Shown here piece after piece: positions 9,540-49,246 of a DNA stretch of 64,000 bases. Numbering within the stretch: the stretch's first letter is position 1; every line of letters starts with the position of its first letter. The notes under the pieces are model-generated. The model saw only the letters and a list, made by a program, of their open reading frames with translations. It was not told the origin of the DNA and made no database searches. Origin of the DNA: a virus. Lineage: Duplodnaviria; Caudoviricetes. The DNA lies in the IMG/VR virus record IMGVR_UViG_3300032038_000028, positions 32,001 through 96,000 of that record; one strand, written 5' to 3'. The position numbers and the translations under genes are program-made.

Positions 9540-9590
9540 TTTGCATAAAAATGAGGTATCACATGGGCGTTATTTGCATAAAAATGCAGT
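9540..9590. promoter_or_regulatory. Paired ARG-box-like sites next to attP
   Basis: TTTGCATAAAAATG occurs at 9540 and 9573, 33 bp apart. The second copy, ttTGCATaaaaATGCAgt, fits WNTGNATWWWWATNCANW. Confidence 0.55.
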
Positions 9591-10556
9591 ATTGACGGCG
9601 CCCCTGTACTTGAGAATTCCTTCCTTCCGAGCCGTCGCGTAGATGGTTTCGACCATACGGGTGTCGGCGTGTCCAAGCAGGTCGGCAACCTGTGCGGATG
9701 TCATACCGGACTCCTTGAGCTGGGTGGCGAAGGTGGCCCGCCAGTCATGGTTGTTGTAGCCGGTCATCCTGAGCTTCTTGAATACGGCCCGCATCGTCCG
9801 CTGAAACGTGGAGATGGAAGCAGGCTGCTTCGGGGTGCGGCCTTCGATTACGAAACCGGAGCGGCGCTGCTCTGGGCGGAGGATGTCGGCCAGTGCGTCC
9901 GGGATCAGGAAGATGCGCTCGGAGCTGGCTGTCTTGGGGTGATCTTTAATCACGGTGCGTTTGTTGTCCGGGTAGACGACGACGCGGGTGATGTGGCCGT
10001 AGCCTTCTTTCAGGTTGATGTCTTCCCAGCGCAGGCCAAGGATCTCTTCCCGGCGCATACCGGTATACACGAGAAGGGCGGCGTACAGGCGCTCCCGCCG
10101 GTCGGTGAGCCCGGGCACTTCGGCACGGATGCGGGTCACCTCTGCGTCTGTCACAGCCTTGTGATGGTGGGACGGGACGCCGTGGTTGCGCAGCAGGACA
10201 GGTTTGTAGGGCGAATCCCGGATGACGTGCAGCGCCTCTGCCACCCGGAGGATGCGGCCGAGAAAACCGCCGATGCGCTCAATGGTGCGCCTGGTGATGT
10301 CCTGCCTGAAGCCGTTCTGCGAGCCGTGGGCCAGCCAGTCGTACAGATTCTGAATGTCGACGATGGTGATCTGATCAATAGGAACGCGGCCGAGGAACGG
10401 GTAGATGTAGCTCTCCAGATAGCGGGAATAGTTGCGCTGGGTGGTCAGCTCCAGGTTGTCGATAAAGGACGAGCGGAAAGTGTGCTCGACGAATTCGATC
10501 AGAGTAGGGGCGTGCGTGCGGGGTGTGGTTGGTATCAATAAATCAGTGCTTAACAT
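9570..10556 (-). CDS. int: Tyrosine integrase
   Basis: Catalytic motifs YTGMRREEILGLRWEDI, K(TASS), HDWR, LLGH and the C-terminal Tyr, plus a SAM-like core-binding domain. The start at 10556 follows GAAAGGA (the ORF track extends to 10682). Confidence 0.93.
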   Translation of the reverse strand: MLSTDLLIPTTPRTHAPTLIEFVEHTFRSSFIDNLELTTQRNYSRYLESYIYPFLGRVPIDQITIVDIQNLYDWLAHGSQNGFRQDITRRTIERIGGFLGRILRVAEALHVIRDSPYKPVLLRNHGVPSHHHKAVTDAEVTRIRAEVPGLTDRRERLYAALLVYTGMRREEILGLRWEDINLKEGYGHITRVVVYPDNKRTVIKDHPKTASSERIFLIPDALADILRPEQRRSGFVIEGRTPKQPASISTFQRTMRAVFKKLRMTGYNNHDWRATFATQLKESGMTSAQVADLLGHADTRMVETIYATARKEGILKYRGAVNTAFLCK

Positions 10557-10756
10557 GGTGGCATCCTTTCCCCGTGTTATACCCTGAACAGAACACTGAG
10601 GTATCATATTGTCAAGGTACGCCGGGGCAGTCAGCCCCATGTCGTTTCCAGTATAGCCTGTGGGGCCGCGGTTGTCAATCATAACTTTCTCCGGTACTGT
10701 AACTTAAACAGAGTTGTAAAAGGCCCGGCCGGCGGTGATGCCAGTCGGGCGCGGGG

Positions 10757-10957
10757 TCAGTTGAGACCTGCCAGCTTCAGGTTGTGCAGGAGGAACCTGT
10801 ACCCATCGAGCAGATCAAGGATCAGATCAACGGTGCCCGTTTGCAGGGCGACGGTGTCTTCGTTGAGCGACGTAGCGTGTTCGATCTCGTCGATCACGGT
10901 GCAGATCCCGTCGTTTTCGCCGATGACGTCGCCTACGGTTTGAAATTCGTTTCGCAT
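10757..10957 (-). CDS. Hypothetical protein (66 aa) upstream of int
   Basis: AAGGAG RBS before ATG, followed by a GC-rich hairpin at ~10722-10750. Confidence 0.55.
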   Translation of the reverse strand: MRNEFQTVGDVIGENDGICTVIDEIEHATSLNEDTVALQTGTVDLILDLLDGYRFLLHNLKLAGLN

Positions 10958-11021
10958 AGCTTCTCCTTGTGGTAATGCATTTCGGCAATTTTTGGAAATA
11001 TTGCCAATGTGTATAGAGGAA

Positions 11022-11107
11022 CCTCAGCGACGTGTGACGGGGCCTGTCGTGATACCCTTACAACTTATCCACCTGCATGGGTGAGGGGCCGTCACATTGA
11101 GCTGAGG
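11022..11107 (-). repeat. Dispersed ~80-bp repeat, copy B (inverted relative to A)
   Basis: CCTCAGCGACGTGTGACGGGGCC...ACCCTTACAACTTATCCACC...GGGGCCGTCACATTGAGCTGAGG. Confidence 0.85.
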
Positions 11108-11157
11108 CGGCTCAGAGACTACGTGAAAAACGGGCGCAGACTTTCAGGAGAAAACCC

Positions 11158-11186
11158 TTGTGAGCCTGCGCCCTGTATGTTATAAT
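11158..11186 (+). promoter_or_regulatory. Sigma-A promoter for the small toxin-like ORF
   Basis: TTGTGA-17 bp-TATAAT with a TG extension. Confidence 0.7.
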
Positions 11187-11263
11187 GCGGGTGCTGTGGC
11201 TGGTACCGAAGCCTGTGAAGCCGACAAAGCATAAAGCCATTCTTATGCAGAGGAGGTGATCGC

Positions 11264-11344
11264 ATGACTGAGTATCAACTTCTGGTGCTTGTCATCATGA
11301 TCGCGCAGTTAGCCTTTGAGGTATTAGCGTACCTGAAAGACTGA
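11264..11344 (+). CDS. Putative type I toxin / holin-like membrane peptide (26 aa, not in ORF track)
   Basis: AGGAGGTGA RBS; MTEYQLLVLVIMIAQLAFEVLAYLKD; has its own promoter and terminator. Confidence 0.7.
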   Translation: MTEYQLLVLVIMIAQLAFEVLAYLKD

Positions 11345-11446
11345 CACAGTAAGCGAACCTTCCGGGACTGCATGCGCCTGGAAGACGCCGTCTGAGGACT
11401 GATCAACCACACAGACGGCGCAGAATGCAAAATCCAGACGCAGCAG

Positions 11447-11491
11447 AACGGTATGTGTGACGTCGCGCATACCGTTTCTTTTTTTTTTTTT
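11447..11491 (+). terminator. Intrinsic terminator
   Basis: AACGGTATGTG...CGCATACCGTT hairpin followed by a T13 run. Confidence 0.75.
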
Positions 11492-11517
11492 ACAGCTGCC
11501 CGCATCACAACCGCACG

Positions 11518-12120
11518 TTACTTGCCGGTGCTGCCCAGACCGCCGTTACGGGCTTCAGTGGTCTCGTCGTCGTCGGTCGTGCCGAAGGGCAGGATCACGC
11601 CCTGACAGATGGCCTGACCGGCCCTGATCTCAACGGGCGGGTTGCCCGGGATATCAGAGCGGATGTTGACGAAGATGTCACCCTCGTTGTCGGAGAAAAT
11701 GTAGTCTCTGTCGATGAGGCCAACACAATTTCCCAGACGGCTGTACTGTTTGATGCCCAGCCCGGACTTCGGGATCATGATCAGGCAGAAGTCGGGGTGC
11801 AGCTCGCACTGAATGCCAGTCGGGAAGGTGATGCCGCGGGGGTTGACCGTCATGTTGCTCATCGCAAAGGGGATGGGGGAGAAGAAGTCATACCCGGCGG
11901 AACCGGTAGTGGCGCGGACGGGCAGCTTGATGGCGTCATAGGCTTCCTTCATGACGGCGTCGGGCAGGTTAAAGCCGCAGTCGATCATGTCGTGCCTGAA
12001 CTGCTCGAAGGACACCTTGCGGAACTTCGCCACCTTGCGGAAGGTATAGTGGCGGTCGATCTCTTCGGGGGTGACTTCGTTGGGAGTGGTGGTAGAGGCG
12101 GCCTTGGTTTTGGTAGCCAT
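11518..12120 (-). CDS. dut: Trimeric dUTPase
   Basis: Motifs SAGYD, PKSG, GLIDRDY, ICQGV and RNGGLGSTG; GAAAGGAG RBS before MATKTK. Confidence 0.95.
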   Translation of the reverse strand: MATKTKAASTTTPNEVTPEEIDRHYTFRKVAKFRKVSFEQFRHDMIDCGFNLPDAVMKEAYDAIKLPVRATTGSAGYDFFSPIPFAMSNMTVNPRGITFPTGIQCELHPDFCLIMIPKSGLGIKQYSRLGNCVGLIDRDYIFSDNEGDIFVNIRSDIPGNPPVEIRAGQAICQGVILPFGTTDDDETTEARNGGLGSTGK

Positions 12121-12142
12121 AGTGGTTTCTCCTTTCGATGGT

Positions 12143-12420
12143 TGGTGCGGCGGCACGAATCGGACGTGCCATTAAGTCCAGTAGTGTGCGGGTGCTCTTG
12201 CTGAGAACCAGACACCGCGAGCTTTACTTTTCGCATACGGAAAAGCGCTGAGAGTAAAGATTCCTGATGTCGGAAGTAAAGGCCGTGCGGAGCTTCGCAC
12301 TCCTGCAGCACGTCTGCCGGGATGTCAGTGACTATTTTAACGTGGTACGCCCCCACATGTTCCCGCATACGGACGCCGTGTATTGTCTTCCACTGCGTTT
12401 ATCTTTCGCCAACGGCCGCA
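12143..12420 (-). ncRNA. Candidate tRNA-ended, tmRNA-like structured RNA (~278 nt)
   Basis: 5' UGCGGC pairs with 3' GCCGCA-CCA. Has a Leu-like D arm, a T arm GGCACG-UCCGAUU-CGUGCC and long-range helices CAGUGG/CUACUG and UGCGGG/CCCGCA. Confidence 0.5.
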
Positions 12421-12424
12421 TAAG

Positions 12425-13036
12425 TTAAAAAGTTGAAGCATCAACTGAACGATCAACATAGTACTCGTATTTTCGGCAACTTCTCTTCGGCGTATCTATA
12501 TGTGCGAATCCATAAAAAGTCAGCGGTTGCTTAACCAAGGCGCGTTCCAAGGCTTTGTCAATCTGTATTCGTAGCGGAAAGGTGAACGTACATGTATCAT
12601 CGTCCTTCCCTTCGCATCGTACAAAAACATACACCGGCATCGTGCAACTGATTTCTATGAGTGCGACATATAACCCCTGATCATCAAAAACGAAATCGTC
12701 GTCAGCGAATATAATGTCACCAGCATTAGGCTGAGGGCATAAGACTCTTCGATCGCCATTATCATCTTCATCAGTCAACTTATCAACAGTTGGCAAAACA
12801 CAGTATGCTATGATTTCGTCATCAGGAATTGATCGATACATGCCAAAGGAACTCTGAATTAAGAATACATCGGCGCTCTCGCTCCATAAAGCAATAACAT
12901 ATACTTTATCATCTATGAACGCGTAGTCGGTATATTCTTCGTCAAATTCTTTGAGGCACGTCTGTGTTTGCACAACACATACGCAGTCGCCCCCTGACGG
13001 TCTGCCTAGATGCTGCCAATATATTGGATCGTACAT
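12425..13036 (-). CDS. Hypothetical protein, low-GC (moron-like)
   Basis: GAGGAG RBS; visibly more AT-rich than its neighbours; 203 aa. Confidence 0.7.
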   Translation of the reverse strand: MYDPIYWQHLGRPSGGDCVCVVQTQTCLKEFDEEYTDYAFIDDKVYVIALWSESADVFLIQSSFGMYRSIPDDEIIAYCVLPTVDKLTDEDDNGDRRVLCPQPNAGDIIFADDDFVFDDQGLYVALIEISCTMPVYVFVRCEGKDDDTCTFTFPLRIQIDKALERALVKQPLTFYGFAHIDTPKRSCRKYEYYVDRSVDASTF

Positions 13037-13089
13037 ATTGATCTCCTCTGGTGTGTTATTACACAGTAAACCGCGTTTACTGTGGAAAA

Positions 13090-13368
13090 TCAGAACGTGA
13101 TCTGCTCGGTGCTGGGCGTCCCGTACATGCGGAAGTTGTCCAGCGCGGGTGGGAATTCACCGTCATTGGTGGTGTTCAGCAGGAACAGCTCGGTCGGATG
13201 CTCGGTGGCCATGTAGAGCAGGCCGAGCATGGAGCGGGCGTTGACCCGGTGCGTGCCGTCTTTGCTTTCGACGACGTAGTTGCTGTCTTCGCCGGCCATC
13301 AGCTTGAGGAAATCGAGAATGGCTGGCTGGGTGTCAAGGGCGATATGTGCCCGGATGTAAGGCTTCAT
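13090..13368 (-). CDS. HPr-family phosphocarrier-like protein
   Basis: VNARSMLGLL matches the HPr Ser46 motif (VNAKSIMG); there is no GLHARP His15 motif. Confidence 0.7.
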   Translation of the reverse strand: MKPYIRAHIALDTQPAILDFLKLMAGEDSNYVVESKDGTHRVNARSMLGLLYMATEHPTELFLLNTTNDGEFPPALDNFRMYGTPSTEQITF

Positions 13369-13918
13369 AGGCTTCCCTTCTTTCTTTGACGTGCTTTTCA
13401 GCGTCTGCGATGATTTTGTCGGGGTCGTAGGGGATGTTGGGGTCAGGCCACGGCTCCCTGTACTCTTCGTTGTATCGGAGGATCTTGGCCCGCAGCGTGT
13501 CCAGCTGCTCGGAGATGTCGATGCCGGAATATTCCCGGGCGGAAATCAGCCCGTAGACCAGCGGCCATCCCCACAGGGTTTCGTGCTCGCTGGTCAGGAA
13601 GAGCCCGACATACTTGTTGTCCCACACCGGCTCGGTGCCGTCGTAGTGCAGGAAGATCATGTCGTCCTTGAACAGATGGTTGTGGTGCGGGAGACGGCAG
13701 GGCCGGTAGATCAGGTTGGTTACCCGGCTGGTGTCGACGTAGCGTGTGTTCCAGTAAGTGAGCTCGACGTACCACGGCGGGAGATCTTCGGGCCGGATCT
13801 TCGTGGGGTAGATCCCGTTCGACAGGAGAAACTCCGGTGGCTCGAAGCACTGCTCCATCTTGCCGTGGGTGTAGTAGTGGGCCTTAAAGCGGCGGTTGAC
13901 CTTCTCGATGTCGTTCAC
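13334..13918 (-). CDS. Hypothetical protein
   Basis: Coupled to neighbours; GGAGG RBS; 194 aa. Confidence 0.65.
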   Translation of the reverse strand: MNDIEKVNRRFKAHYYTHGKMEQCFEPPEFLLSNGIYPTKIRPEDLPPWYVELTYWNTRYVDTSRVTNLIYRPCRLPHHNHLFKDDMIFLHYDGTEPVWDNKYVGLFLTSEHETLWGWPLVYGLISAREYSGIDISEQLDTLRAKILRYNEEYREPWPDPNIPYDPDKIIADAEKHVKERREAYEALHPGTYRP

Positions 13919-14436
13919 AGGATCCCCTCCTTTACTCTGTCCATAATGTCCTCGGCCATGACGTCACTGAAACAGGTGATGGTGACGCTACTCATACCGT
14001 AGTAGATGGCAACGACTTCGCGCCAGCAGGCGGACTCGACGATGGTAGCGACGATCTGCCCGCCGCCAGGTACGGTGTCGATCATGACGGAGTCGCCGTG
14101 GAGATAGACTTCCATGACGGCCTCCTGAAAGATTTTGACGTAGCGCTCCTCGACCTGATCGTGCAGGATCCTGCTGCGCCTGCCGAGATGCTTCTCGCCG
14201 TAGCGGTCGATATATGGGGTCAGGCCCAGCGTGTCCAGATCTTTTGACAGCTGACCCTGATTGCACCCCAGCCCGCGCTCGGCCAGCCATTCTGTCAGGG
14301 CGACCTGACCGGTGTAGACTTCCTTGCGGGCGAATTCGAGGATGGCCTTCAGGCGCTTGCGGCGCAACTCTTTGAAATACTCAACGCCCTGGTTATTGAT
14401 GATGGCGACCTGTTTGGCGCCCTGTTCGGATGGCAT
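13915..14436 (-). CDS. argR: Arginine-repressor (ArgR/AhrC)-like protein
   Basis: Winged HTH (TGQVALTEWLAERGLGCNQGQLSKDLDTLGL, compare TQ.EL...L...G..VTQATVSRD..EL) and C-terminal domain (IDTVPGGGQIVATIVE, compare KTLPG.A..IA..ID). Confidence 0.8.
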   Translation of the reverse strand: MPSEQGAKQVAIINNQGVEYFKELRRKRLKAILEFARKEVYTGQVALTEWLAERGLGCNQGQLSKDLDTLGLTPYIDRYGEKHLGRRSRILHDQVEERYVKIFQEAVMEVYLHGDSVMIDTVPGGGQIVATIVESACWREVVAIYYGMSSVTITCFSDVMAEDIMDRVKEGIL

Positions 14437-14508
14437 AGTAGCTTCCTTTCTGCTTTTTTCACCAGTAAATGTGGTCGGATAAGAGTTGGTGGAGCAAATC
14501 ATGGTATT

Positions 14509-15183
14509 TCATGACGCCACCTGCTCTTCCTGCTTGTGGTGTCTGTAGTGCTTTTGTACCGGCGCAGTGAAGGCGCGCTCGACGTCCCAATGATACCGAA
14601 ATATGCGCTGCCACAGTGTCACCACTTTGATTCCAAACGTCGCGGCCCAGTCGGACAAACATCGCGTAACGCCATGATAGGTGATCTTGATGTTATTGCG
14701 TCTATTACGCTGCTGCTCGGCCATGGTAATCCATCGGCAGTTGACAGGGTTATATCCTTCGTTGACGTCGATGCGGTCAAGGGTCAGATTCTCCTGATAC
14801 CCGGTGCGCTCCGCCCACTGCATGAAGTTCGCAAAATCATGCCACTCCTCGCAGACGGAGACCCCGCGCCCGCCGTAGTTGTCGTAATTCGTGCTGTGCG
14901 GGTTTTCGCATCTTGTGTGCATATTTGTCCAGATGCTATATAAGCGTGAGTAGCACTGGCCGTGTATTGTGTGAGCTGCCCTCACCCGTTCCTTCTGCAG
15001 GCATCCGCAGGATGTTGTGCGCCCTCTGCGCAGATCGGAGCCCCGAACATCCTTCTCGTTGCCGCAGTCACACAGACAGCGCCATCTGGCAGTACCATGC
15101 TTATCACACGCAGGATCAGCACGCCCGACTACCACCAACCTGCCGAAGCGCTGGCCTGTCAGATCAATAAAGGCACGCATCAA
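14509..15183 (-). CDS. HNH-type homing endonuclease
   Basis: DLTGQRFGRL, WRCLCDCG, SCGC, YGGRG and TLDRIDVNEGYNPVNCRW motifs. Confidence 0.85.
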   Translation of the reverse strand: MMRAFIDLTGQRFGRLVVVGRADPACDKHGTARWRCLCDCGNEKDVRGSDLRRGRTTSCGCLQKERVRAAHTIHGQCYSRLYSIWTNMHTRCENPHSTNYDNYGGRGVSVCEEWHDFANFMQWAERTGYQENLTLDRIDVNEGYNPVNCRWITMAEQQRNRRNNIKITYHGVTRCLSDWAATFGIKVVTLWQRIFRYHWDVERAFTAPVQKHYRHHKQEEQVAS

Positions 15184-15662
15184 ATCACCTCTCCATACTG
15201 GTTATCAGACGCCAGATCCACGCCGAGCACTTCGTCAAAGTGCGGCTGCTGTCCGGGGACATACCGGCCGTATTTCATCACGATCTGTACGCCGCTGATA
15301 CCCTTCAGCTCGTCGAAGAAGCCGAGCCTCTGCACTTCGCACTTGGTGTAGCCGGTATAGATCACGAAGGTGGTCTGAACGCCGCGCTCGACGGCACGGC
15401 GGATCAGACGGCACACTTCATGGATCTGAAGCAGAGGCTCCAGACCTGCGATCACGATGGCTTTGGTGATGGGGTCGGTCAGATAGGCGTCAAGAATCTC
15501 GTCGTCCGGGATCTCGGTAACCGGCAGCCTGGCGACCGGGTGGTTCTGGCAGACATACGGGTTGTCCGGGCAGCACTTCCAGTCGCAGAAGCAGGCGGCG
15601 AGATACAGGGACGGTTCTTTGTAGTCTTGAAAACGCTCTGTCAGCATCTTTCTGACTCTCAT
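15180..15662 (-). CDS. nrdG: Anaerobic ribonucleotide reductase activating protein (radical SAM)
   Basis: CxxxCxxC-like CFCDWKCC motif, GLEP, YTGY and ASDNQ; adjacent to nrdD. Confidence 0.85.
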   Translation of the reverse strand: MRVRKMLTERFQDYKEPSLYLAACFCDWKCCPDNPYVCQNHPVARLPVTEIPDDEILDAYLTDPITKAIVIAGLEPLLQIHEVCRLIRRAVERGVQTTFVIYTGYTKCEVQRLGFFDELKGISGVQIVMKYGRYVPGQQPHFDEVLGVDLASDNQYGEVI

Positions 15663-15667
15663 AGGCT

Positions 15668-17428
15668 TTACTCCGTCAGCTGGTTGCGGTCTTTGAATTC
15701 GTTGGCTTTGCCGCGGTTGAAGTTGTCGACATCCCGCAGGTAACCCGTAATGCGCTGGAATTTATGCAGGCGTTGTTTGCAGATGGGGCATTTATCTACG
15801 CGCTCCATCACATAGCCGTGCTCCGGGCAGTACCGGGAGATGGGGGAAATGCTCATGTAAGGGACGTTGTAGGTCTCGAACATGGCTTTGACGATTTCCT
15901 TTGCATGCTCGCCGGGAATGGCACCATCCATGTAACAGTGGATAACCGTACCGCCGGTAAAGAGCGTCTGAAGATCATTCTGATGGGCGAATGTGGAGTT
16001 GATATCCTTGACGTCGCCTACCCACAGGTGGCAGGAGTTGGTGTAGTAGACATCCTTGCCGCCGGGGCCCTGCGTGATGATGTCCGGGTAATCCTTCTTG
16101 TCGATCAGGGCAAGGCGGTGCGAGGTGGCCTCTGCGGGGGTAGCTTCCAGGTTCCACAGGTTTCCGGTTTCTTCCTGATACTGAACCAGCCTGTCGCGCA
16201 TGTGATTGAGCACGTCCCGCATCAAGGCATGGCCTTCTTCGCTGCGGATGTCCTTGCCGAGCAGGTTCAAGCACATCTCGTTACCGCCCACCAGACCGAT
16301 GGTGCTGAAGTGATTGCGCAGGGTACCGACATACTCGATAAAGGCAGGTATCAGCTTGGCGTCGATGACGTTTTCCTGCAGCCATTTGCGCTTGATTTCC
16401 AGACTGTCTCTGGCGATGTCCATGTATTTATCCAGAGACTCCCAGAACTTCGCTTGATCGCCGTGGGCTTCGTAGGCCATGCGCGGCAGATTCAGGGTAA
16501 CCACGCCGATGGAGCCGGTGCTGTCTCCGGAGCCGAACAGACCGCCGTTTCTGCGGCGGAGCTCACGCAGGTCAAGCCTGAGCCGGCAGCACATACTCCT
16601 GGCGTCGGACGGATCCATATCTGAGTTGATGAAGTTGGCAAAATAGGGCGTGCCGTACTTCCCGGCCATCTCCCAGAGCAGCTTGTTGTTGGGATTATCC
16701 CAGTCGAAGCGCTTGTGGATGTTGTAGGTGGGGATCGGGTAGGCAAACAGCTTGCCTTCTGCGTCGCCGTTCAGCATGATCTCAAAGAAAACCCGGTTGA
16801 GCAGATCCATTTCCTGCTGGCAGTCCCCGTAGGTGAAGCTGACCAGATCACCGCCGACGATGGCGTAGTCGTCAATCATGTCGGCAGGAGGCGTCAAGTC
16901 GAACGTCAGGTTGAAGAAGGCCGGCTCAGCCCCGCCGCGGCTGTTGCTGTTGACGGAGAAGATGAAGTTCTGCATCGACTGCTTGACTTCGTTGTAGCTG
17001 AGCTTGTCCGCCTTGATGAACGGAGCAAGCAGGGTGTCGAAGCTGTTAAAAGCAACGGCTCCCATGATCTCGTTCTGAAACACGGTGACCAGATTCGCGC
17101 ACTGGTTGAGCACGGAATCAAAGTGCTTGGCCGGGGCGGATACGGGGATGTTGGACACGCCACGGACGCCTTTATAGAGGATGTCCTTCAGGGAGTACCC
17201 GCAGCAGTACAGCGTCAGCCCGCCCAGATCGTGGATATGAATATGGCCATCGACGTAGGCCTGAGAGATGTACTCCGGGTACACCTCCCGGAGCCAGTAG
17301 TCCTTGCTGACCTCGGCGGTCATGTATTTGTTGAGCGCTCCGAAGGAAAACGGGCTGTTGGAATTCTCCTTGGTGCGCCAGTCGGACTTCTTCAGGTACG
17401 CTTCGACGATGGCCTTGGAATTCTTCAT
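15668..17428 (-). CDS. nrdD: Class III anaerobic ribonucleoside-triphosphate reductase
   Basis: HIHDL, SMCCRL, EATPAE, YYTNS, a C-terminal Zn ribbon and the glycyl-radical motif RITGY. Confidence 0.95.
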   Translation of the reverse strand: MKNSKAIVEAYLKKSDWRTKENSNSPFSFGALNKYMTAEVSKDYWLREVYPEYISQAYVDGHIHIHDLGGLTLYCCGYSLKDILYKGVRGVSNIPVSAPAKHFDSVLNQCANLVTVFQNEIMGAVAFNSFDTLLAPFIKADKLSYNEVKQSMQNFIFSVNSNSRGGAEPAFFNLTFDLTPPADMIDDYAIVGGDLVSFTYGDCQQEMDLLNRVFFEIMLNGDAEGKLFAYPIPTYNIHKRFDWDNPNNKLLWEMAGKYGTPYFANFINSDMDPSDARSMCCRLRLDLRELRRRNGGLFGSGDSTGSIGVVTLNLPRMAYEAHGDQAKFWESLDKYMDIARDSLEIKRKWLQENVIDAKLIPAFIEYVGTLRNHFSTIGLVGGNEMCLNLLGKDIRSEEGHALMRDVLNHMRDRLVQYQEETGNLWNLEATPAEATSHRLALIDKKDYPDIITQGPGGKDVYYTNSCHLWVGDVKDINSTFAHQNDLQTLFTGGTVIHCYMDGAIPGEHAKEIVKAMFETYNVPYMSISPISRYCPEHGYVMERVDKCPICKQRLHKFQRITGYLRDVDNFNRGKANEFKDRNQLTE

Positions 17429-17434
17429 AGTCGG

Positions 17435-17647
17435 TCACTCCTTTTTATATTTAGCCAGCCAGGCGAGGGCGGCAGTCTCATAGAGGATTTCTCCGTCGAC
17501 CTCGATGGCCGGAACACTGTCAAGATTTCGGGCGACGATCTGATCTACGTCGCTGATTTTTGTGTATTCAATGCCGCGCTTCTTCAGCATCTCGCTGAGG
17601 AAAGCACAGCGGTGGCATCCATCCACCCCGTACAGGATTACTTTCAT
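17435..17647 (-). CDS. Glutaredoxin / NrdH-like protein
   Basis: CHRC redox motif and SVPAIEVDG; next to nrdD. Confidence 0.8.
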   Translation of the reverse strand: MKVILYGVDGCHRCAFLSEMLKKRGIEYTKISDVDQIVARNLDSVPAIEVDGEILYETAALAWLAKYKKE

Positions 17648-18141
17648 CGGTCCTCTCCCATCCTTTTTCCAAATTCTACGATGCGCGGGTCGTTGCGGTT
17701 GTCGGAGAGACGCTCCTCGTCCGTGCCGTAAACAACCGGCTTCTGACGCTTGGCATCTTCCGCCATCCGGTCAAGCACTTCGCTGACAAAATGGATGGCG
17801 CCGGCGATGTCCCACCGGGTGATCATTACGACGGCAGCAGCCAGAGGAGGATCCAGCTCCTTGTCCCGGGCAAAGGCCACCGGGTCGATCTGCGGGGTAT
17901 AATCCGCCCACTCCGTCTCCCGGGGGTAGGTGGTGTTGGTAACGAGCTTCTTCAGGTATTCGAGCGCCTTGCGCAGATCCTGTTCGAGCGCGTCCTTGTG
18001 CCCGGCCCGGACGAGATACTTGACGGCGTTGCCCCGCAGGAAATCCAACCGCCAGTCGGAGATGAAGTCCCAGGTTTCAATGGTTCCTCTCGTGTAGTAC
18101 ACGGGATGGGAGACCGCCTGCTCAATCTGCTGTGTCGTCAT
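17644..18141 (-). CDS. DUF3310-like protein
   Basis: VSHPVYY..G.IET.D, GNAVKYL.RAG.K...DL.KA..YL. Confidence 0.75.
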   Translation of the reverse strand: MTTQQIEQAVSHPVYYTRGTIETWDFISDWRLDFLRGNAVKYLVRAGHKDALEQDLRKALEYLKKLVTNTTYPRETEWADYTPQIDPVAFARDKELDPPLAAAVVMITRWDIAGAIHFVSEVLDRMAEDAKRQKPVVYGTDEERLSDNRNDPRIVEFGKRMGEDR

Positions 18142-18799
18142 TCTGATAAACCTCGCTTAAATGTTTATGCCGTCCGCACCCCTGCCGCTCCGGGCAGAAG
18201 GGATAGTCGGCGTTGATTTCACACTTGGGGACAAGGTACGGCCCGATCAACGGTACCTCTGCTTCGGCGGCAGCTGCCATCTCCCCGGCAAGCTCGCGGA
18301 TTTCCCACTGGGCTCTGGTACATAGCCGCTCATGGCAGAAGTGCATCAGCTCCCGGGCGTTCATGGTAACCGTCAGCTCCGTCTCGCAGGCGTTGGGCAG
18401 GACGAAGCGGGCGTCTTCCGGCGGCATGCCGTAGTCGAGCAGGCGGCCGTAAGCGTTGCGGATGTAATCGATCACGTTGTTGTACAGCTGCCGGGCCGCA
18501 TCGTTGTGAGCGATGGAGGGAGGGGTAACCACGCCGAAATTATTCTCTTTGCAGTAGCGCTGAGAGCGTACGGAAAAGCTCATCAGGCGGTGTCTGGTCA
18601 GCTGGGCCAGCAGGGCACGGCTGACGCCTTCGATACGGAAGGTAAAATTCATGTGCTCCCAGACCGACAGGTGGCCGGTGCGGGCACAGGCTTTGAGGAT
18701 CCGCCCGTCTTCGGACGGCTGGCTGTCATAACAGGTGGACGCCGCCTGCTCACAGGTAGCGACCGGGTCGCTCGTGACAGCGATCAGTTCAACATACAT
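18122..18799 (-). CDS. thyX: Flavin-dependent thymidylate synthase
   Basis: GHLSVWEH, RHRLMSFSVRSQRY (RHRx7S motif), ARFVLPN, AQWEIR. Confidence 0.95.
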   Translation of the reverse strand: MYVELIAVTSDPVATCEQAASTCYDSQPSEDGRILKACARTGHLSVWEHMNFTFRIEGVSRALLAQLTRHRLMSFSVRSQRYCKENNFGVVTPPSIAHNDAARQLYNNVIDYIRNAYGRLLDYGMPPEDARFVLPNACETELTVTMNARELMHFCHERLCTRAQWEIRELAGEMAAAAEAEVPLIGPYLVPKCEINADYPFCPERQGCGRHKHLSEVYQNDDTAD

Positions 18800-19558: not shown

Positions 19559-19573
19559 CCCCTTTCCAAGGTG

Positions 19574-40337: not shown

Positions 40338-41024
40338 TTAACGCAGGATTTCCAGGATATCGAACTCGGTGTCCTTCCGGTAGCAACGCTTGCAGGTGGC
40401 ACAACTGATTCCGGCACAGTTGGATTTCACGCCGTGGGCCAGCAGCCATTCCTTCGTGTAGACGGTGAAGCGGTGATCCACATATGGGAGAGCCCACGGT
40501 GGAATCGCGTCCGGCATGTTGATCCGCAGGCTGGAGAAGACGAGCGTCATGTTTTCCGGCTTGCCTTCCTGCTTCAGAGCTTCCACCCAGAGATCCAGAT
40601 TCTTCGTCCAGACCCCGAACCGGCAGTCCGGATTGGCCTTGATGATCCTGATGTAGTTGACTGCCTGCAGGACACTGGCGACATCGCCGAAGCTCTCCAC
40701 CCGGGTCAGCTTGTCAGGATTGATCCTTAATGCTTTCGGAGTCCACTTGACCTTGGGCGCCGTTTCGATTTCCGTTGCGTTCAGTGTAGCAAAATTCTGT
40801 CCGGTTGTCAACTTAAGTCCGGGGCGGATCTTCTGCAGGGCACAGCTGAAGCAGTGAGCGCACACCGCTTCGCCGTTCAGCATCCGTGCAACGCACCGGG
40901 GATTCATCAGACAGCAGGTGGAGAAGGACGGGAGCCCGGCCATTTTGGATTTGCAATCGTGTTCCGTCTGGATGAGCTCCGCTGTGGTTCCGTTCGCCAT
41001 GGTCATCGCAAGTCTGTACGCCAT
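40338..41024 (-). CDS. Gp88-like Cys-rich protein
   Basis: SKM....S, CAHCF, RVESFGD, WTKN, CATCKRC. Confidence 0.55.
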   Translation of the reverse strand: MAYRLAMTMANGTTAELIQTEHDCKSKMAGLPSFSTCCLMNPRCVARMLNGEAVCAHCFSCALQKIRPGLKLTTGQNFATLNATEIETAPKVKWTPKALRINPDKLTRVESFGDVASVLQAVNYIRIIKANPDCRFGVWTKNLDLWVEALKQEGKPENMTLVFSSLRINMPDAIPPWALPYVDHRFTVYTKEWLLAHGVKSNCAGISCATCKRCYRKDTEFDILEILR

Positions 41025-44000
41025 ATGATACCTTCCTTTCGTAGACAGTTGTCTACCTTTTGTGCATTAAAAAAGAACCGTTTACGGTTCCTGTTTGAGC
41101 CACGCTTCGATGGCGGATTGCGAATCGAACGTCATCGACTCGCCGGTCTCGGTGTTCTTGAAGAGGTAGGCCGTTTGCCGATGTCGTCCGACTGGCCGGG
41201 CCCGGAAGACCAGAACCCAGCCGCGCTTCAGCATTCGCTTTTCCAGGCGGAGCAGATGCTCCGGGTATTTATTGATTTCCATGGCTGTTCTCCTTCCGTC
41301 AGAAGCTCCGCGCCAGTGTTCCGTCCGGGTTGGTCAGGTAGCAGTACAGCCCATCCCGCAGGTTGTACCCGGCGACCTGAATGATGTGGTCTTCGTGGAT
41401 CCGCACCACGTTGATTCCCTTGACTCCCTTCAGCACGCCGCGATTCACGGCCGGGATCTGATTCCGCTTGGCGTAGATGCGCTTCGGGGGCTTGCTCAGT
41501 CCGGTGATGCCGGGCTTAAAGAGCTCGATCGCAATCATTTGGATTCTCCTTCCCACCACGGTTTCTCTTTCCGTCCACGCCAGCATCCATGTGCCGGGCA
41601 CCAGTCACAGCGCTCGTCATGCCCTTCATCAGCGGCATCCCAGTGGCAGAGCGTGCAGAGCATCGTCTTCCGTCCACAGGTGGGGCAGGTGACGGCATAG
41701 GTTTCCATGTCGTCGTCATCAATTACAATTGGGATATCGGTATCGCATTCCGGGCAGTACTCTCCGAAGTCGTAACCGGTTTCCTGTTCCGTTTTAACGT
41801 GGGTCATACGACGCTCCCTTCCGCCGTGAACGAGATCGTAACTTCCCCGCTCAGATCCGGCATGTCATAGAACAGACTGTTGGTTCCGCTGACCACTGCT
41901 CTGGTGTGGTTCTCGTTTACAGACATTCCGGTACGGAGCCACATGGCGTGGGTCAAAGCTTCAAACGCGTTCCGGGTGGCAGATGCAAAAGCTTCCTGTC
42001 CGCCGCCGATGTCTTCGACGACGTACTGCTCCACCATGGGGGAGTAAACATGGTCGCCGTTTTCAAAGTGCAGGACGGATCCCACCTGACCAAGGTCGCG
42101 CCGAATTCGGATTCCGGTTGTGGCGCCGTTGTCAACCATGAGTACCATTACAGCTCACCTTCTTCCAGCTCGAGCCCGTTCTTCTGCAGGATGGCGTTCA
42201 CCAGCATGGGCAGATTCTGATCCACCATGCGCTCGGCTTCCTGTTCCGCTTTGGCAGACTTGCGGGCGACTTCCTTCAGGAGAAGCTTGGTGCCGCTGAA
42301 GGCAACGAAACCTTCCATCATGACGCCGTTGCCGCAGGAGCGTCGTTCCACCGGGACGACCGTCAGATAGTAGCCGCGCCGCTCGTTCTTGTAGGTGAAC
42401 AGGTTCATGCCGCCAAGGCTGTAGGACATATCCACTTTCAGGTGGGTTGTGGTTCCGGCGTTGGGTTTCACTTTCAGATAACGTTTCATGGTTTACTCTC
42501 CTTCCATTTCTGCGTCCGCTCTGGCGATGATGTCTTCCAGATAGTAGCCGACCAGCTCCCCGAACAGAGTGCCGGCGGGTTCTGATTCCTGTGCAAGATT
42601 GATGATCGTATGGGCGGTGACTTCGGGAATGTGAGTCCACGTTTCATCGACCGCCTTGGCGATCGCGTTCATAAAGCAGTAGCACCAGTCGGGATTGCTC
42701 AGGCGGGATTTCATGTCGGGCATAGTTTATTCTCCTTCCTTCACGGGCTTCTTGCTGATGATGACGGTTGCGACGTCCTCGAGCCAGCCTTCCATCACAT
42801 CGAAGGTGCCGTCCGCTACATTTTGCTCGATGGCCTTGATGGCGGCGTCGTCGGTGCGTGCCCGGTGGCACATCCGATTAACCCAAGTTTCGCGCCGTTC
42901 CACTTCATATTCGTACATCGGTTCTTCTTCCACTTCATACTGGTCGATTATGCCGTACTTGTCATAGATGTACAGTCCGCCTTTATCGCAATCAATGCGG
43001 ATGTCGGTAATGGTTACCTTTCCGGTGGCACTGATTACGTAACGCTGAGCACTCAGGATGTGAAAATTTGCGCGCCGTTTCCCAGACATCACCCAGCTGT
43101 GCATAACTTTGAGATCTTCTATGTCCGACCAAAGGACCGGCTTTCCGCCGTAGGTCACAACGAGAACATATTTGATGTCGCTTTCCATTATTACTTCTCC
43201 TTCCGTCAATGGTCGAATTCCGGGAACCATCCTTCCCAGACAACGTTTTTGCAGATGTCTCCGAAGCGGAAGTGCTCGCCCGGTTCCCATCCGAAGTACC
43301 AGACGCGCTCTCCGTGCCAGTAGATCTCGGTGACGTCATCGTTCGTGCAGTCATCGAAGGCAATGATTTTGGAAACGTCGGTGAAAAACCGATCCGCTGA
43401 GACGTTGCTCGAGTATCCGTGAACGGTGACGATCCGCTCATCGGAGTCCGCGGTATCATGTTCCACTGCAAACAGGTTCAGCTTGGCGCCGATGCTTCTC
43501 ATGTTGGGTTCTCCTTCCGTCAGTAGATCCACAGGGCTTGCTCGAAGGTCTGCCCGTCCACTGTGACGTTAATGAGCCAGTCACCTTCCGCCGGGCGAAC
43601 GTATTCGTTGAGCCAGATTTCGGCGTCCGCTACGACGTGATGGATGCCGCTGCGGAATCCGATGAACCATGCCAGTGCGGCGACCAGCAGGACGGCGATC
43701 AGTTTTTTCATGCGTCATTCTCCTTCCATTCCAGCTTGTACACCCGGTGGGCGGTCGCTTCGGTGTCTACGATCCAGTACCGGCGAATGATTTTCGTTTC
43801 CCGATCCGGCGACACACTGGTCAACTGGGTCGGCAGGTAGCCGGCGTAGGTATAGCCGTACTCGGTGCGCTCCGTTCCGCCGAGATTCCGGAAGAACGGG
43901 ATGGCGTCGAAGATGTTGTGGTAGAATTCGTAGGAGATTTTGCGCACCGTTTCTGAGTCCGGCTTGGTCTTCCAGCTCTTGCCGGAAGTCGTGCGGGAGA

Positions 44001-44120
44001 AGCGCTGTTCCTTTTCCACTATGACGGCGTTCTCCAAATAGCTGCGGTTCATGCGAATGTTGCGGGTGGGATCAGACATAATTTACCTTCCTTTCTGGCT
44101 CCGTTGAGCCTGTACAATGT

Positions 44121-44180
44121 AGCCTGTCTCGTCAGTAACGGGCGGCCATTCCCGTCAGACCGCCCGAAGGCGGTTTCGAC
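44121..44180 (-). ncRNA. Type II hammerhead ribozyme HH1
   Basis: GUC-GAAA-CCGCC(UUCG)GGCGG-UC^UGACGGG(AAUGGCCG)CCCGUUA-CUGACGA-GAC-AGGCU. The catalytic core, three stems and a loop-I/3'-tail pseudoknot are all present. Confidence 0.9.
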
Positions 44181-44886
44181 AATTCGATTTCCTTTCCGGT
44201 TCCGTTTACCTTATGCGGTCTGCTCGGCGGCTTCGGCAGCCTTCTTCGCTTCCCGTTCCGCCCACCACCGTTCCGAGGCGATACGTTCCTGCTCGCGCCG
44301 CTCGGCATTCTCGTTCAAAATCTTTTCCTGTTCCGCGGGAGACACTTCGCCGACCAGCTTGTACACGTACAGCGTGTAGGCATCCTTGCCATTCTGCTGT
44401 TCCTCGTCCCACTCGTAACGGCGGGACGCCTTAATAATCTTATCGGGGGCCTTTTGGCCTGGTTTATACTGGTAACGTTTTATCAATTCGGGTTCCAGCG
44501 CGTAGTCGTCGAAGCTCTTGACGTGGCTCTGTTCGCACTCATAGCAGAGATCGTAGTCTTCGTAGGTCTGGCCGCAGTGGTCGCACACATACAGATTTTT
44601 CATTTTGATTTCCTTTCTGGTTCCGATGAACCTTAGTCCAGATCGTCCAATGTGAGAATGCCCATAGCCCAGAAGAGCTTCCAGAAGGTTTCCGAATTGG
44701 TTCTGATTCCGTTGGGCAGATGGATGTCGCAAACGGTGCTCCGCTGACGGTGCGAGCAATATTTGCTGTTCCGCGTGGTATATAGGGGTGTGATCTGATT
44801 CCCCTTGACGTAGGCGTAAAGCATGATTCGATTTCCTTTCCGGTTCCGTTGAACCTTTTGGGATCGTTTCGGGTTCCGTTTACCTA

Positions 44887-44925
44887 TGTGTATAATATGC
44901 AAGATTGTGTGTATAATTATGCATT
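44887..44925. promoter_or_regulatory. Tandem ARG-box-like sites
   Basis: tgTGtATaatATgCAag at 44887 (one nt short) and tgTGtATaattATgCAtt at 44908, 21 bp start to start. Confidence 0.55.
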
Positions 44926-45605
44926 TTGGAATCGATTCGGGTTCCGTTGAACCTTATGCAAGCTGTTCAGCTGCTTCCCGTTTCGCCCAAACGTGGTCTT
45001 GTGCATCGTAAACCTTGTTCCGCTGGTGCCACTTCAGGCGGTTGTCTCCGGCGTCCAGATCCACTGTGTAGGATCCGTCGTTGAAATCCACGAGCCGTCC
45101 GCCGACGAAATCGCCAGCGTCAGCCCAGACCTGATTCCCGTTCCGCATATAGAACTTAATGACTTCATCGCCGGATATGATGGTTACGTCCACCTTGACG
45201 ACGTCTTCGATCTTGACGCAATCCAGATAATGACGGTCGTTCCGATAATCCATTACGCATGCCAGTCCGTTGTGCTTTCCTTTGTAGGTGCTCATGATCC
45301 TATCTCCTTTCTGGTTCCGTTGAACCTATCAGAAAACCCGCATGTAAGGCTGTTCCGGTTCCGAGAGCTGAAGGTAGCAAGCAAGCTGACGCTTGACATA
45401 GAAATTCTCTTCCTCGTTGATCTTACCAACGATGAAGAGAATCAATTCCGATTCCAGTATATGCCCCTGCTTCCATTGGGCGATCTTCTCACGGATTTCT
45501 GCCTCTGCCAGAGCAAAGCGGGCGTTAGCATTCCGTTCCATCGTTTCTGTAATCTTCATTGTTATCTCCTTTCTGGTTCTGTTATGAACCTGTGCATAAA
45601 AATAC

Positions 45606-45665
45606 AGCCTGTCTCATCAGTAGCGGTAGGCTGGTTCCGCCAGACCGCCCGAAGGCGGTTTCGAC
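45606..45665 (-). ncRNA. Type II hammerhead ribozyme HH2
   Basis: GUC-GAAA-CCGCC(UUCG)GGCGG-UC^UGGCGG(AACCAGCCUA)CCGCUA-CUGAUGA-GAC-AGGCU. Loop AGCCU pairs with the 3' AGGCU, and stem I covaries with HH1. Confidence 0.92.
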
Positions 45666-46991
45666 TTCCATCAGCGGCGAGCGTCCCAATCGAAAAGGTA
45701 GCTGGTTCCGGTGGCCACTGCGACAAATTTGATGTGTCCGTCATTCGGAGCGTCGAAATGGACGAAGCTTTCCGCTTCCGCATAGGTCATTTCTTTTGTG
45801 GTGCTGGTTCCGTTCCAAGTCATGATCGTTACATTGCACTTTAAGTTTGCCATAGTGATACCTTCCTTTCTGTCGTTGAGTTATGAAAACCGGTTTCGAT
45901 TCCGGTTCCGCTCTTAATAAAAACGCCGTCCAGAGCGGGCGGCGAGCTTGCGAATGTTCCGTTTGAATTGTTTTGCCTGCCAGCGTTCGGCGCGTTCCTG
46001 CTGGATTCTGTCTCCGTCGAAGACGGCGTGCAGGAAATGCTGTTCCTTCACAAACTCGATGATGCAGGCTATCAGGTAGGCCAAGCAGAGGAGGGCAAAG
46101 GGGATAGCTGCAATGAGCCAGTTGGGCGGGAGCATAAGCATTTTCCTTTCTGATTCCGATATGGATTCTGGTTCCATCATCGCCTCTTGCGGCGATTTTT
46201 GGCATAAAAAAACCGCCCGAAGGCGGTTGGGTGCGGAAGCTGGGTTATTCGTAACAGTTGAAATACTCGAAATACAGGGTTACATACTGGTCATGCCGCT
46301 CGACGCGCACGCCGTCGGGGTGAATCGGCTCCTGAGCTGGAGCATCGTTAGACAGTACATCGTCAAAGCAGTCGCCCAAGTCGATGTCAGCAGACTCGGC
46401 TATGATGTTGATCTCCAAGATTTCGACGCCGTAATAGGCACGGGTCGTGTCAGTGGCTTTGTAGTGCTTTGCAACGACGTCATGGCGTTCGCTGACCTCG
46501 GGCTTGCCCATGGCCAAATTCATCACCTGCTGCCACTTGGCGGCAAACGACACTTCGTCAGGGAAATCGCCTTCAACAGGCGTCACGTTGTCGATGGTAC
46601 AGTTGAATTCTTCGTTGATATGCCTGCACAGACAGTCGATCTGTGTCAGCCTGCTTTCGACAGGTCTGGTCTTCGGTGGTAACTGCTCAGCGTCGTCAGT
46701 CTGCCGCCCTTTGTGCTTGAGCACATCGGCCCAACTGTCGATCACTGCCTGCGGAGCGCCCGCCATTTGCAGGGCACCAAGTTTCAGGTACACCTCAGAT
46801 GCGGGCGTTGTCTTAAAATCATCTCCTTCAAAATATCGTTGTGCGGCGTCAGGATCGCGCCACAGGTTGTAAAAGTGATAAGGGTCTTCATTGAACATTT
46901 TTCGGAACTCTTCTTTTTGCTCATCAGTCAGCTCAGAAGGGTCAAGGTCGTCAAGATATAGCATGCAGGTTATCACGCTCCCTTCGCTCAG

Positions 46992-47020
46992 AGTATAAAC
47001 GTTGTGACATGCGCTGTCAA
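46992..47020 (-). promoter_or_regulatory. Sigma-A promoter
   Basis: TTGACA-17 bp-TATACT upstream of 46245-46976. Confidence 0.75.
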
Positions 47021-47295
47021 GCGCGGTTACCTGTACTCATGCACCTCCCCATCAAAGTCGATCAGGAACGCGTCACCTTCGGCCCATACTTGGGCAGTGG
47101 CGGCGGCATGGCGTACACCTTGGGCGTAGGCGTTGTGAGCGATAACGGCGGCCAAGGCAAGCAGGGCAATGATCTTAAACAGTTTACGCATAAGGAAACC
47201 CCTTTCGCCCATAGCGTCTTCATGCGGACGCAAGCGGGCATATAAGCCGGGTATCAGGCCCCCGGCAGGCCGCAGGTATGGGAAGCGCGGGGAGC

Positions 47296-48138
47296 TTACT
47301 TCTCTTCGCGCCAGATCACGTCGTAGGCAACGCCGGACACTACATGGGAGAGGACGACGAACATCAGGTGCATGGTCTTCTCGGGCGTGCGGATGTGGGG
47401 CTTGCCAGTTTTGTCGTCAAGCCAGAACATGTACTGCATGAAGAAGCGGGCGTCTTCACGGCGGATGCGGTAACGGTTCTGCCCGTCGTCGCGCCCGGTC
47501 GTGTCGAACAGGATATTGTCGACGATCGTCTGCAGGCGCCTCATGATCTGGTTGATGGTCAGCTCTTCTGTCCATGCGTTCTTCTCGTTTTCGGTCATGT
47601 CACATACGTCGATCGGCTGACCGTCGTCAGTGTAGACGAGCATGTCCCCGGTCATGGCGAACGCATCGCGGAACTTCTGCATGTCGCACTTCAGGAGCTT
47701 GCACTCTGCCGCCGCCGCATACAGACGGGCGCGGTAGGTGCGGGAAGACCATTTCTGGTCGTGCATCAGGTCGCCGAGGTTAAGGTCGCTGTAGGTGCTT
47801 TCCAGAAGCTTCAGCCGGTAGGGCTCAGTGTCTTCGGTCTCGATCTCGACGTTCTTGATGCGGTCGGTGCCACTTTCCTTGGTGATCTTTCTGGTCGCGA
47901 GGCCAGAGAAGGAAAACGCTTTCGCGGCGGTTGCAACGACGTCTTCGCCGGCACAGATCGTCTCGTAGGCGTTCGTGCGGACCTTCTTGTTGTAATCGGC
48001 CAGAGCTTCACGCAGTTTCTTCTCGGCCGCATCAATGGCGACTTTGGTCACGGCGGGAGTGTTGGCAACCGTCTTGTAAGCGGTAGCGGCGGACTTGCAG
48101 TTGTTCATAGCGACGTTCAGTTCTTCAGCTGTGTACAT
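47296..48138 (-). CDS. Hypothetical protein, first gene of the leftward arm
   Basis: GGAGG RBS, 280 aa, typical codon usage. Confidence 0.75.
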   Translation of the reverse strand: MYTAEELNVAMNNCKSAATAYKTVANTPAVTKVAIDAAEKKLREALADYNKKVRTNAYETICAGEDVVATAAKAFSFSGLATRKITKESGTDRIKNVEIETEDTEPYRLKLLESTYSDLNLGDLMHDQKWSSRTYRARLYAAAAECKLLKCDMQKFRDAFAMTGDMLVYTDDGQPIDVCDMTENEKNAWTEELTINQIMRRLQTIVDNILFDTTGRDDGQNRYRIRREDARFFMQYMFWLDDKTGKPHIRTPEKTMHLMFVVLSHVVSGVAYDVIWREEK

Positions 48139-49246
48139 AGTGTACCTCCATGGCGCCAGTGGCGCAGTTTTTTAGCTCGGGCCGTCATCATTGCAGGCGG
48201 CGCGAACAGGGAGGCCCGGCCGATCGAAATCAGCAGGGCCTGAGGAAGTACTATATGCGCACGGCCGAAGCCGAGAATTTCGCATGGTTTAACACTTATG
48301 CCAGTTACTATGCGTATCGCCCACAAGCCGCTCCCAGATACTAAGAGCCAGTAACAGACAGGAGAGATGACAAACCTGCCCCATCGCGGACGATTCGCCA
48401 GTGCGCTGACACTTGGCGAGTAACGGCAACTTCGGTATGGTGCCACTACCAGATTGTACCCCCGTACTACACGAGCAGTCTGTACAGGTAGGCTGACCGC
48501 TTCACAGCGGACCACAGACGACCCCGCGCAAAAAATGCGACAGTTTCCCGTCTGCGATGCTCATGCCGCCCAGCCGCTATGCGACCGCGCGACACGAGCG
48601 CGAAACCCGCGCCGCGACCGCCGCGCCAACCGCGACCGCCGCGCGCTTTATTATCGCGCTCACAATGGACGGGAACGAGACCGAGAAAAAGTATGAACAA
48701 ACTGTGAACAAATTATGAACGAGAAAAAGAGTGAAAACGCGACCGCGACCGCCGCGCGGATACGCTGACGGTTGGAAAAGTAACACTTTCGTAACATGAT
48801 TTTTGATTTTTGATCAGAAAAGCGGGGAAATACTCACGCATAAAAAAAAGCCCGTCTTAAAATCGAGATGAAAATGCCTGTGAAATGAGGCGTTTTAACA
48901 TATGAACAGGCGCTCAGACTTAAAATCGACCAGATACGACAAAAAGAGCGAAAAAACGCCGAAAAACAGGCATTTTCCGGGCTATTTTTGATCAGGAAAC
49001 GCCATTTTCCCCGCCGTCAGAGGAAAAACGGTATAAATGTTACAAAAATGTAATAATTATATACAGAAAATGGATAAAAATACATATAAAACGGCAGTTT
49101 ATACATTGATATACATTGAAATTGTATAAAAAAATCTCAAAAAAATAGAGAAAATCGTCTGATCAGGCAGGAGAATTTCACTTTTTGTCGAATATGTATA
49201 GTGTAATTCAATACACCACACCACTACATGAAGGAGGAAACACACC

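Follow-up and report, generated by a model that had tools for sequence, protein, structure and literature searches.

Does a phage that carries sites resembling ARG boxes, the operators of the arginine repressor ArgR, follow the arginine status of its host through them, and does its own ArgR-like protein take part? The question is raised by a virus of the Caudoviricetes (Duplodnaviria), IMG/VR record IMGVR_UViG_3300032038_000028, which is 112,852 bp long and complete according to CheckV. We analysed bases 32001-96000 of this record, a stretch of 64,000 nucleotides called the window below and numbered from its first base. An initial annotation of the window had listed ARG-box-like sites at the phage attachment site (attP) and at other control points, as well as a gene for an ArgR-like protein. 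The listed sites are all present. Our analysis suggests that the phage holds ArgR-type operators of its host clade at four places: A at attP, B and C along the leftward operon, and D in the divergent region. The phage protein is best named, from its sequence, an arginine-blind ArgR paralogue.

The search pattern was the 18-mer WNTGNATWWWWATNCANW, that is the E. coli consensus with positions 5 and 14 freed. The window contains three exact matches (9573-9590, 44908-44925 and 49069-49086), two sites with one mismatch (45591-45608, and 14916 within a gene) and three with two mismatches (9540, 49100 and 29166, the last within a small open reading frame, ORF). Shuffles of the whole window yield 0.01 exact matches, and 2.05 matches with up to two mismatches, against five observed beyond the exact ones. 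The whole 112,852-bp record has the same three exact matches, and a reversed-pattern control has none. The strict E. coli consensus, with TGAAT/ATTCA arms, was discarded: it fits no listed phage site, and only the clade-appropriate relaxed form does.

Sites were scored with a symmetric matrix derived from 43 argG-promoter sites of the host clade and from no phage sequence (training median 18.5 bits, 75th percentile 20.7). As a local control, dinucleotides were shuffled within blocks of 60, 100 or 200 bp, which preserves the AT-rich islands. Eight sites reach at least 12 bits, against 1.4-1.6 in the local shuffles (0 of 300 shuffles reach 8). Three reach at least 15 bits, against 0.23-0.31 (at most 1 of 300 reaches 3), and one reaches at least 22 bits, against none. 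The excess over composition-matched DNA on which the initial annotation depended is therefore present. As a natural control, 31 genomes related to the MAG (metagenome-assembled genome) described below contain 67 exact matches in 79.5 Mb, true ARG boxes included. At this density 0.095 matches are expected in the phage, and the probability of three or more is 1.3e-4. The boxes are also in phase on one helical face, with separations near 21 bp or near a multiple of 10.5 bp: start-to-start spacings are 21 bp (44887/44908), 21 and 31 bp (49048/49069/49100) and 33 bp (9540/9573). These spacings resemble those of host tandems, so the weaker partner sites gain weight. Sites 14916, 29166 and 56329 lie inside ORFs, score 8.9-13.6 bits and were treated as chance matches.

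The phage, of 113 kb, comes from the rumen or gut, and its host clade is probably Christensenellales-like Clostridia. Related DNA is present in bovine and goat gut metagenomes, and no RNA dataset was among the sequencing runs listed as containing it. A search with the ArgR-like protein turned up a related prophage within a 3.3-Mb rumen MAG labelled Christensenellales. This prophage is integrated at the phage's own 47-bp tRNA core. The MAG also encodes a canonical ArgR, and its loci have the GC content of the phage, about 56%. The entire MAG has just four exact matches to the pattern, in two pairs, located directly upstream of argG and of argC-argJ. Since its matches are confined to arg promoters, the relaxed pattern is not a fit made after the fact. 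Boxes with at most two mismatches are found in 23 of 25 argG promoters from relatives of the MAG; the half-sites read TGCAT, TGAAT or TGTAT, and tandems 20-23 bp apart are frequent. TGCAT arms are a published ARG-box variant, the Streptomyces form (PMC4865122). The phage site at 44908, TGTGTATAATTATGCATT, is identical to the host argC box TGTGTATAATTATGCATA at 17 of 18 positions, and the phage site at 45591 is identical to the upstream host argC box TATGCATAAAAATACAGA at 16 of 18. With these identities, and with scores of 22.3, 18.0 and 15.9 bits for the three exact matches, the phage sites are 18-bp palindromes like the arg operators of the host clade. As judged from sequence, the putative phage boxes are of the ARG-box type of the host clade and not of E. 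coli alone, which bears out their first identification.

The ArgR-like protein was recognised by its sequence and by its predicted fold, as first proposed. Its C-domain matches Arg_repressor_C (PF02863) with 28.4 bits in Pfam (cut-off 25) and with 30.8 bits in the genome search. The N-domain family PF01316 gives 22.9 bits in Pfam, below its cut-off of 27; the winged helix is nevertheless found in the structure model. The AlphaFold model has a predicted local distance difference test score (pLDDT) of 83.6. Foldseek returns AhrC/ArgR at the top (E 1e-10), with template modelling scores (TM, target-normalised) of 0.78-0.93 and root mean square deviations (rmsd) of 0.7-1.8 Å for C-domain entries. 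The N-domain of the model superimposes on that of the AhrC N-domain-DNA complex 2p5l with a target-normalised TM of 0.85 and an rmsd of 1.3 Å.

The arginine pocket is different. Asp128 and Asp129 of E. coli ArgR contact L-arginine at its guanidino and alpha-amino groups (PMC2880562). The corresponding motif, GDD(T), is GMSS in the phage protein, which therefore lacks the Asp-Asp pair. Other phage-type clusters have GTEN, GLSC, GINS or GPTH at this position, whereas canonical ArgR matches and the host ArgR have GDDT, GDNT or GEDT. A profile search of 1.84 billion representatives places the protein in a compact clade of five clusters below 1e-30; scores then fall off steeply to those of ordinary ArgRs, which are about 150 residues long. 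The recognition helix reads QGQLSKD instead of the canonical QATVSRD; Gln, Ser and Asp are kept and Lys replaces Arg. The loss of the Asp-Asp contacts fits the idea, already raised in the initial annotation, that the phage ArgR could override the arginine signal. The genes on either side of the ArgR-like gene were also inspected. A 194-aa gene (13334-13918, minus strand) has its start overlapping the ArgR-like stop. Among relatives, its product keeps 76-77% identity where the ArgR-like protein has only 57-64%, and it has no Pfam, PHROG, Atlas or fold match (low-confidence model, pLDDT 63). The ORF at 14509-15183 (minus strand), between nrdG and the ArgR-like gene, has no Pfam match and contains the one-mismatch site 14916; from a reading by eye, without a search, we take it to be possibly a homing-endonuclease gene. 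A 224-aa ORF adjoins nrdG in one diverged relative (L010) also, and none does in another (L008).

Table 1 Features of the window discussed in the text. Scores are in bits and refer to the matrix derived from host argG promoters; L006 is a diverged prophage locus.
Feature	Position	Strand	Score	Remarks
att core	9480..9527	-		tRNA gene 3' end, CCA end at 9480; terminator hairpin after it, 9476-9447 on the minus strand
ARG box A1 (degenerate copy)	9540..9557	.	12.1	two mismatches; right arm ATGAG for ATGCA; 13 bp from core edge
Tyrosine integrase (int)	9570..10682	-		Pfam Phage_integrase 5e-21; 74% identical to L006 integrase
ARG box A2 TTTGCATAAAAATGCAGT	9573..9590	.	18.0	exact match; near training median; 46 bp from att core edge
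ArgR-like protein, 173 aa	13915..14436	-		good ribosome-binding site at 14436 start
Site 29166	29166		13.6	
Tandem ARG boxes B1 and B2	44887..44925	.	22.3 (44908)	21 bp start to start; between two minus-strand genes; 44908 is the genome's best site
ARG box C TGTGCATAAAAATACAGC	45591..45608	.	13.3	one mismatch; 32 bp upstream of 76-aa gene 45329-45559 (-)
Hammerhead type II ribozyme HH2	45603..45666	-		Rfam RF02276 Hammerhead_II, 33.9 bits, E 1.9e-5; below gathering score 37
ARG cluster D	49048..49117	.	10.8 (49048), 15.9 (49069), 12.9 (49100)	boxes 49048, 49069 (exact) and 49100; spacings 21 and 31 bp
Site 56329	56329		12.1	

Gene calling divides the window into two long blocks. The plus-strand block extends from 49247 onward; should the record be a permuted circle, it goes on past the record end to 9190. 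The minus-strand block covers the stretch from 48138 to the integrase. The blocks diverge over an AT-rich region of 1.1 kb (48139-49246) and converge on the att core. Pair B lies 62-100 bp, and box C 32-49 bp, upstream of small minus-strand genes, in a stretch flanked by two hammerheads. Box B1 (44887-44903) is a 17-mer variant with a 3-nt centre. It scores 16.9 bits and is the top match genome-wide for a 17-column matrix; the near-copy that the initial annotation had noted 21 bp upstream of B2 (44908-44925) thus exists in this form. In contigs from three other metagenome studies the adjoining 63-aa gene is deleted (breakpoints 44853, 44868 and 44888) and pair B is kept. Box C had been described as abutting HH2. 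The contact is real and amounts to a 6-nt overlap with the HH2 3' tail, while the ribozyme itself stays under the Rfam gathering score. Cluster D occupies an AT-rich part of the divergent region, 130-200 bp before ORF 49247, and iteron-like repeats adjoin it. Its sole plus-strand promoter candidate is weak, TTGATA-18-AAAAAT, and the -35 element overlaps box 49100. The genes beside B, C and D have no match in Pfam or PHROGs. An RNA-structure reading of the boxes was rejected: folding is no better than in shuffles (z -0.8 to +0.4), which favours a role at the DNA level.

Other features were noted as well. The segments 45322-45661 and 44626-44887 are small-gene cassettes between GGTTC-AACG-GAACC hairpins, and their presence varies among near-identical relatives. 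One metagenome contig (L049, 96-98% identical) has at 1083-1100 an ARG-like 18-mer of 15.9 bits over a probable start codon, in a segment without counterpart in the window. Region 48560-49246 carries four copies of the GC-rich iteron-like repeat CGCGACCGCCGCGC, two copies of ATTTTTGATCAG 178 bp apart with a third TGATCAG at about 49160, and two copies of CTTAAAATCGA. This stretch next to cluster D has the look of a replication origin or of a region with multiple operators.

At attP, the initial annotation had placed A2 between the att core and the int 3' end. The site in fact encodes the last six int codons (T-A-F-L-C-K), and the int stop codon is at 9570-9572. A near-consensus promoter at 10678-10650 suggests that the true int start may be further in. 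The att core shares 47 identical bp with the prophage locus L006, where the full tRNA continues; ARAGORN finds no whole tRNA in the window. Relative to int, the same core has the opposite orientation in the two genomes (9480-9527 here, 6247-6293 in L006). The left arm, 9440-9479, is 84-87% identical to two MAG contigs, one of them beside the prophage att site (C50; the other is C67). Just past the terminator of the tRNA fragment is a near-consensus minus-strand promoter (9405-9434: TTGACA, 16-18 nt, TATATT/TATTAT) with the palindrome CGTATAATATACG as its -10 region. The promoter points towards a bidirectional hairpin at 9286-9333, about 100 nt away, and the two could make a small RNA at the attP left arm. 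A second tyrosine recombinase (50883-51824, plus strand; phrog_216, 1e-26) is encoded early in the plus-strand block, apart from the attP-linked integrase.

Three diverged relatives (L006, L008 and L010) share the gene order nrdD-nrdG-argR-like-194 aa-91 aa ... dUTPase-int. The scan of genome contigs for relatives gave a single MAG and no other, and that of metagenomes one 2.5-kb contig only. Neither 8.5 kb of DNA nor the ArgR-like protein had a match in phage databases. IMG/VR scans with the ArgR-like protein, its alignment, the DNA polymerase, the 327-aa and 280-aa proteins and a pattern of hairpin plus ribosome-binding site returned one near-identical relative or nothing. A DNA search with int and attP against 401 genomes of the order of the MAG found no further lysogen.

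The sites agree with host operators, exceed chance and are phased; from this, together with the ArgR fold and the lost arginine-contact residues, we infer that ArgR-family hexamers bind the putative boxes and couple early phage expression to ArgR occupancy. We give this reading an even chance. Arginine-loaded host ArgR hexamers on the boxes would damp or block early transcription, and infection or prophage gene expression would thereby read the arginine status of the cell. The phage paralogue, which would be expressed from the middle of the leftward operon, probably acts on the same boxes without arginine, as feedback or override. At attP a bound hexamer may bend the arm next to int. Binding of ArgR at 9573 is plausible from the score of the site. 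An architectural role in recombination, as envisaged in the initial annotation, is not a conserved property of this phage group; it is a secondary and weaker possibility and the weakest step of the scheme. A wider proposal makes the phage paralogue a ligand-free mimic. It would form a closed hexamer on phage operators and on the host arg regulon regardless of arginine, time the shut-off of early genes, shape the integration site and divert carbamoyl phosphate and aspartate to nucleotide synthesis. We regard this proposal as improbable.

Several observations weigh against a regulatory role of the boxes. Consensus scans show no sense-strand sigma-A-like promoter over B or C. The perfect TATAAT -10 elements in B, the only good -10 elements seen, face antisense. 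No box is found at the ArgR-like gene itself, and the recognition helix, besides differing from the canonical one, varies in the clade (SKD, SRD, SID or SKH). L049 does without a 340-bp segment that comprises part of HH2, box C and the 76-aa gene. The three diverged relatives keep the ArgR-like gene and have no site of at least 9 bits in the 10-13 kb compared, int/att region included; the attP boxes are kept in one relative only, which is 98% identical and hence little informative. The MAG with the related prophage has no exact box away from its arg promoters, so the phage ArgR family is not generally accompanied by boxes in cis. Lastly, about 123 kb of host DNA contain 12 sites of at least 12 bits and 2 of at least 15 bits. 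Since sites of 12-15 bits are common there, weight can be given only to the best-scoring sites and to the partners in phase with them.

This last point bears on an alternative in which AT-rich promoter or spacer sequence happens to fit a degenerate pattern and is bound by no ArgR-family protein. ARG boxes are similar to -10 elements (TGTGTATAAT), every site lies within an AT-rich island, and positions 5 and 14 of the pattern were relaxed to obtain a fit. For the top sites chance is rejected by the local-composition shuffles and the whole-genome natural controls. In the 3.3-Mb MAG the relaxed pattern selects nothing but arg promoters, two phage boxes agree with arg boxes of the host in 16-17 of 18 positions, and partner sites stand at 21-, 31- and 33-bp spacings. 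We consider that chance has little likelihood as an account of the boxes. Real binding could still serve another end: as decoys on a replicating 113-kb genome, the boxes would titrate host ArgR, so that arginine synthesis would be derepressed and supply phage protein production. The best phage site does score above the 75th percentile of the argG training sites. We find this very hard to believe, with just four loci and about eight sites per genome, set at gene boundaries and control regions and not in a single array, and with a phage-encoded ArgR-like protein that is hard to square with titration.

At attP alone, A1 and A2 could be arm-type sites of the integrase or sites of a directionality factor, their likeness to ARG boxes being coincidental and ArgR having no part in recombination. 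The two are direct repeats, 33 bp apart, that share 18 of 20 nt, positions free in an ARG box included, and they adjoin the core on the int side, the usual place of such sites. In L006, which has the same core, inverted relative to int, and a 74%-identical integrase with a different N-terminus, A1/A2-type repeats are lacking, as they should be if arm specificity changes along with the N-terminal part. There is also a precedent in phage P1, where an Arg-box look-alike (16/18) beside loxP showed no ArgR binding in vitro and no effect on Cre (PMC2409434). Nonetheless A2 scores about the median of true host sites, and a site of at least 18 bits arises in about 3% of locally shuffled genomes. The repeats are on one arm only: within 300 bp of the other arm there is no further copy, even with four mismatches allowed. 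Pfam recognises no arm-binding domain in the integrase, and boxes of nearly the same type are present at three further loci, remote from attP. On balance it seems unlikely that A1 and A2 are sites of the integrase or of a directionality factor. The phage ArgR might, alternatively, act mainly on the host, as an arginine-blind repressor or poison subunit that fixes the arginine regulon, the phage boxes being read by host ArgR or incidental. A fixed regulon could, for example, spare carbamoyl phosphate and aspartate for pyrimidine synthesis; carbamoyl phosphate is common to the arginine and pyrimidine pathways (PMC6245113). The ArgR-like gene belongs, in all relatives, to a conserved nucleotide-metabolism block (nrdD-nrdG-argR-like ... 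dUTPase), it is kept in relatives without boxes in cis, and the arginine contacts are lost clade-wide. Such a role leaves unexplained a phage ARG-box density about 30 times the host-clade level, and with a diverged recognition helix, binding of the phage protein to host boxes is only putative. A mainly host-directed action is thus a possibility, albeit a doubtful one.

If ArgR does bind, the phage would read, at several of its control points, the amino-acid sensor of its host, of which it also has a ligand-blind copy. In a gut clade that is uncultured and little studied, phage development would then be tied directly to nutrient state. The arginine-blind ArgR clade also shows, as a natural experiment, how allostery can be taken out of ArgR. 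The attP idea, if true, would extend the accessory role of ArgR from Xer/cer to a phage integrase; as a conserved feature it has the comparative evidence against it. In the literature we found no paper describing a phage ArgR paralogue together with ARG boxes.

The closest known systems are the bacterial ArgR/AhrC operators (E. coli TNTGAATWWWWATTCANW; Streptomyces AWTGCATRWWYATGCAWT; PMC4865122). Like the phage sites, these are AT-centred palindromes of 18 bp with TG..AT / AT..CA arms, in tandem copies about 21 bp apart, and the regulator has the same two-domain fold. The phage differs in having its sites at cassette boundaries, in the divergent region and at attP, and none at an arg gene, and its protein differs by the missing Asp-Asp contacts and by Lys for Arg in the SRD motif. 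The ColE1 cer/XerCD system shares an ARG box beside a tyrosine recombinase core, where ArgR would be architectural (PMC2409434). At cer a single box stands 98 bp away from the core, and the system requires PepA plus about 180 bp of accessory DNA (PMC2409434). In the phage the two copies lie at 13-63 bp, A2 in the int coding end, and relatives with the same core lack them. Judged by distance and conservation, its attP does not have the cer arrangement; the boxes are absent from L006, L008 and L010.

Phage P1 provides a good consensus match near a phage recombination site, for which a link between ArgR and lysogeny had been proposed (PMC2409434). By analogy, the outcome at loxP illustrates how the inference of ArgR at a recombination site can fail. 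In our case, on sequence evidence, the sites resemble the operators of the host clade itself, and do so at four loci. A gene labelled ArgR in or near the integration module of a temperate phage is also known from the Acinetobacter phages fEg-Aba01 and relatives, where an 'arginine repressor' of 228 aa is annotated beside int/xis (PMC7354433, Table 2). There it is an annotation only, no boxes are reported, and the likeness is one of label. For the principle that sites of a host global regulator let a phage follow the state of its host, the best parallel is Spo0A. Spo0A boxes are present at early promoters and origins of the Bacillus phages phi29 and Nf, where the effects of Spo0A are established by footprinting and transcription assays (PMC2731898). 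The regulator and the signal differ from those proposed here, and phi29 encodes no copy of its regulator, whereas the present phage carries an ArgR paralogue of its own.

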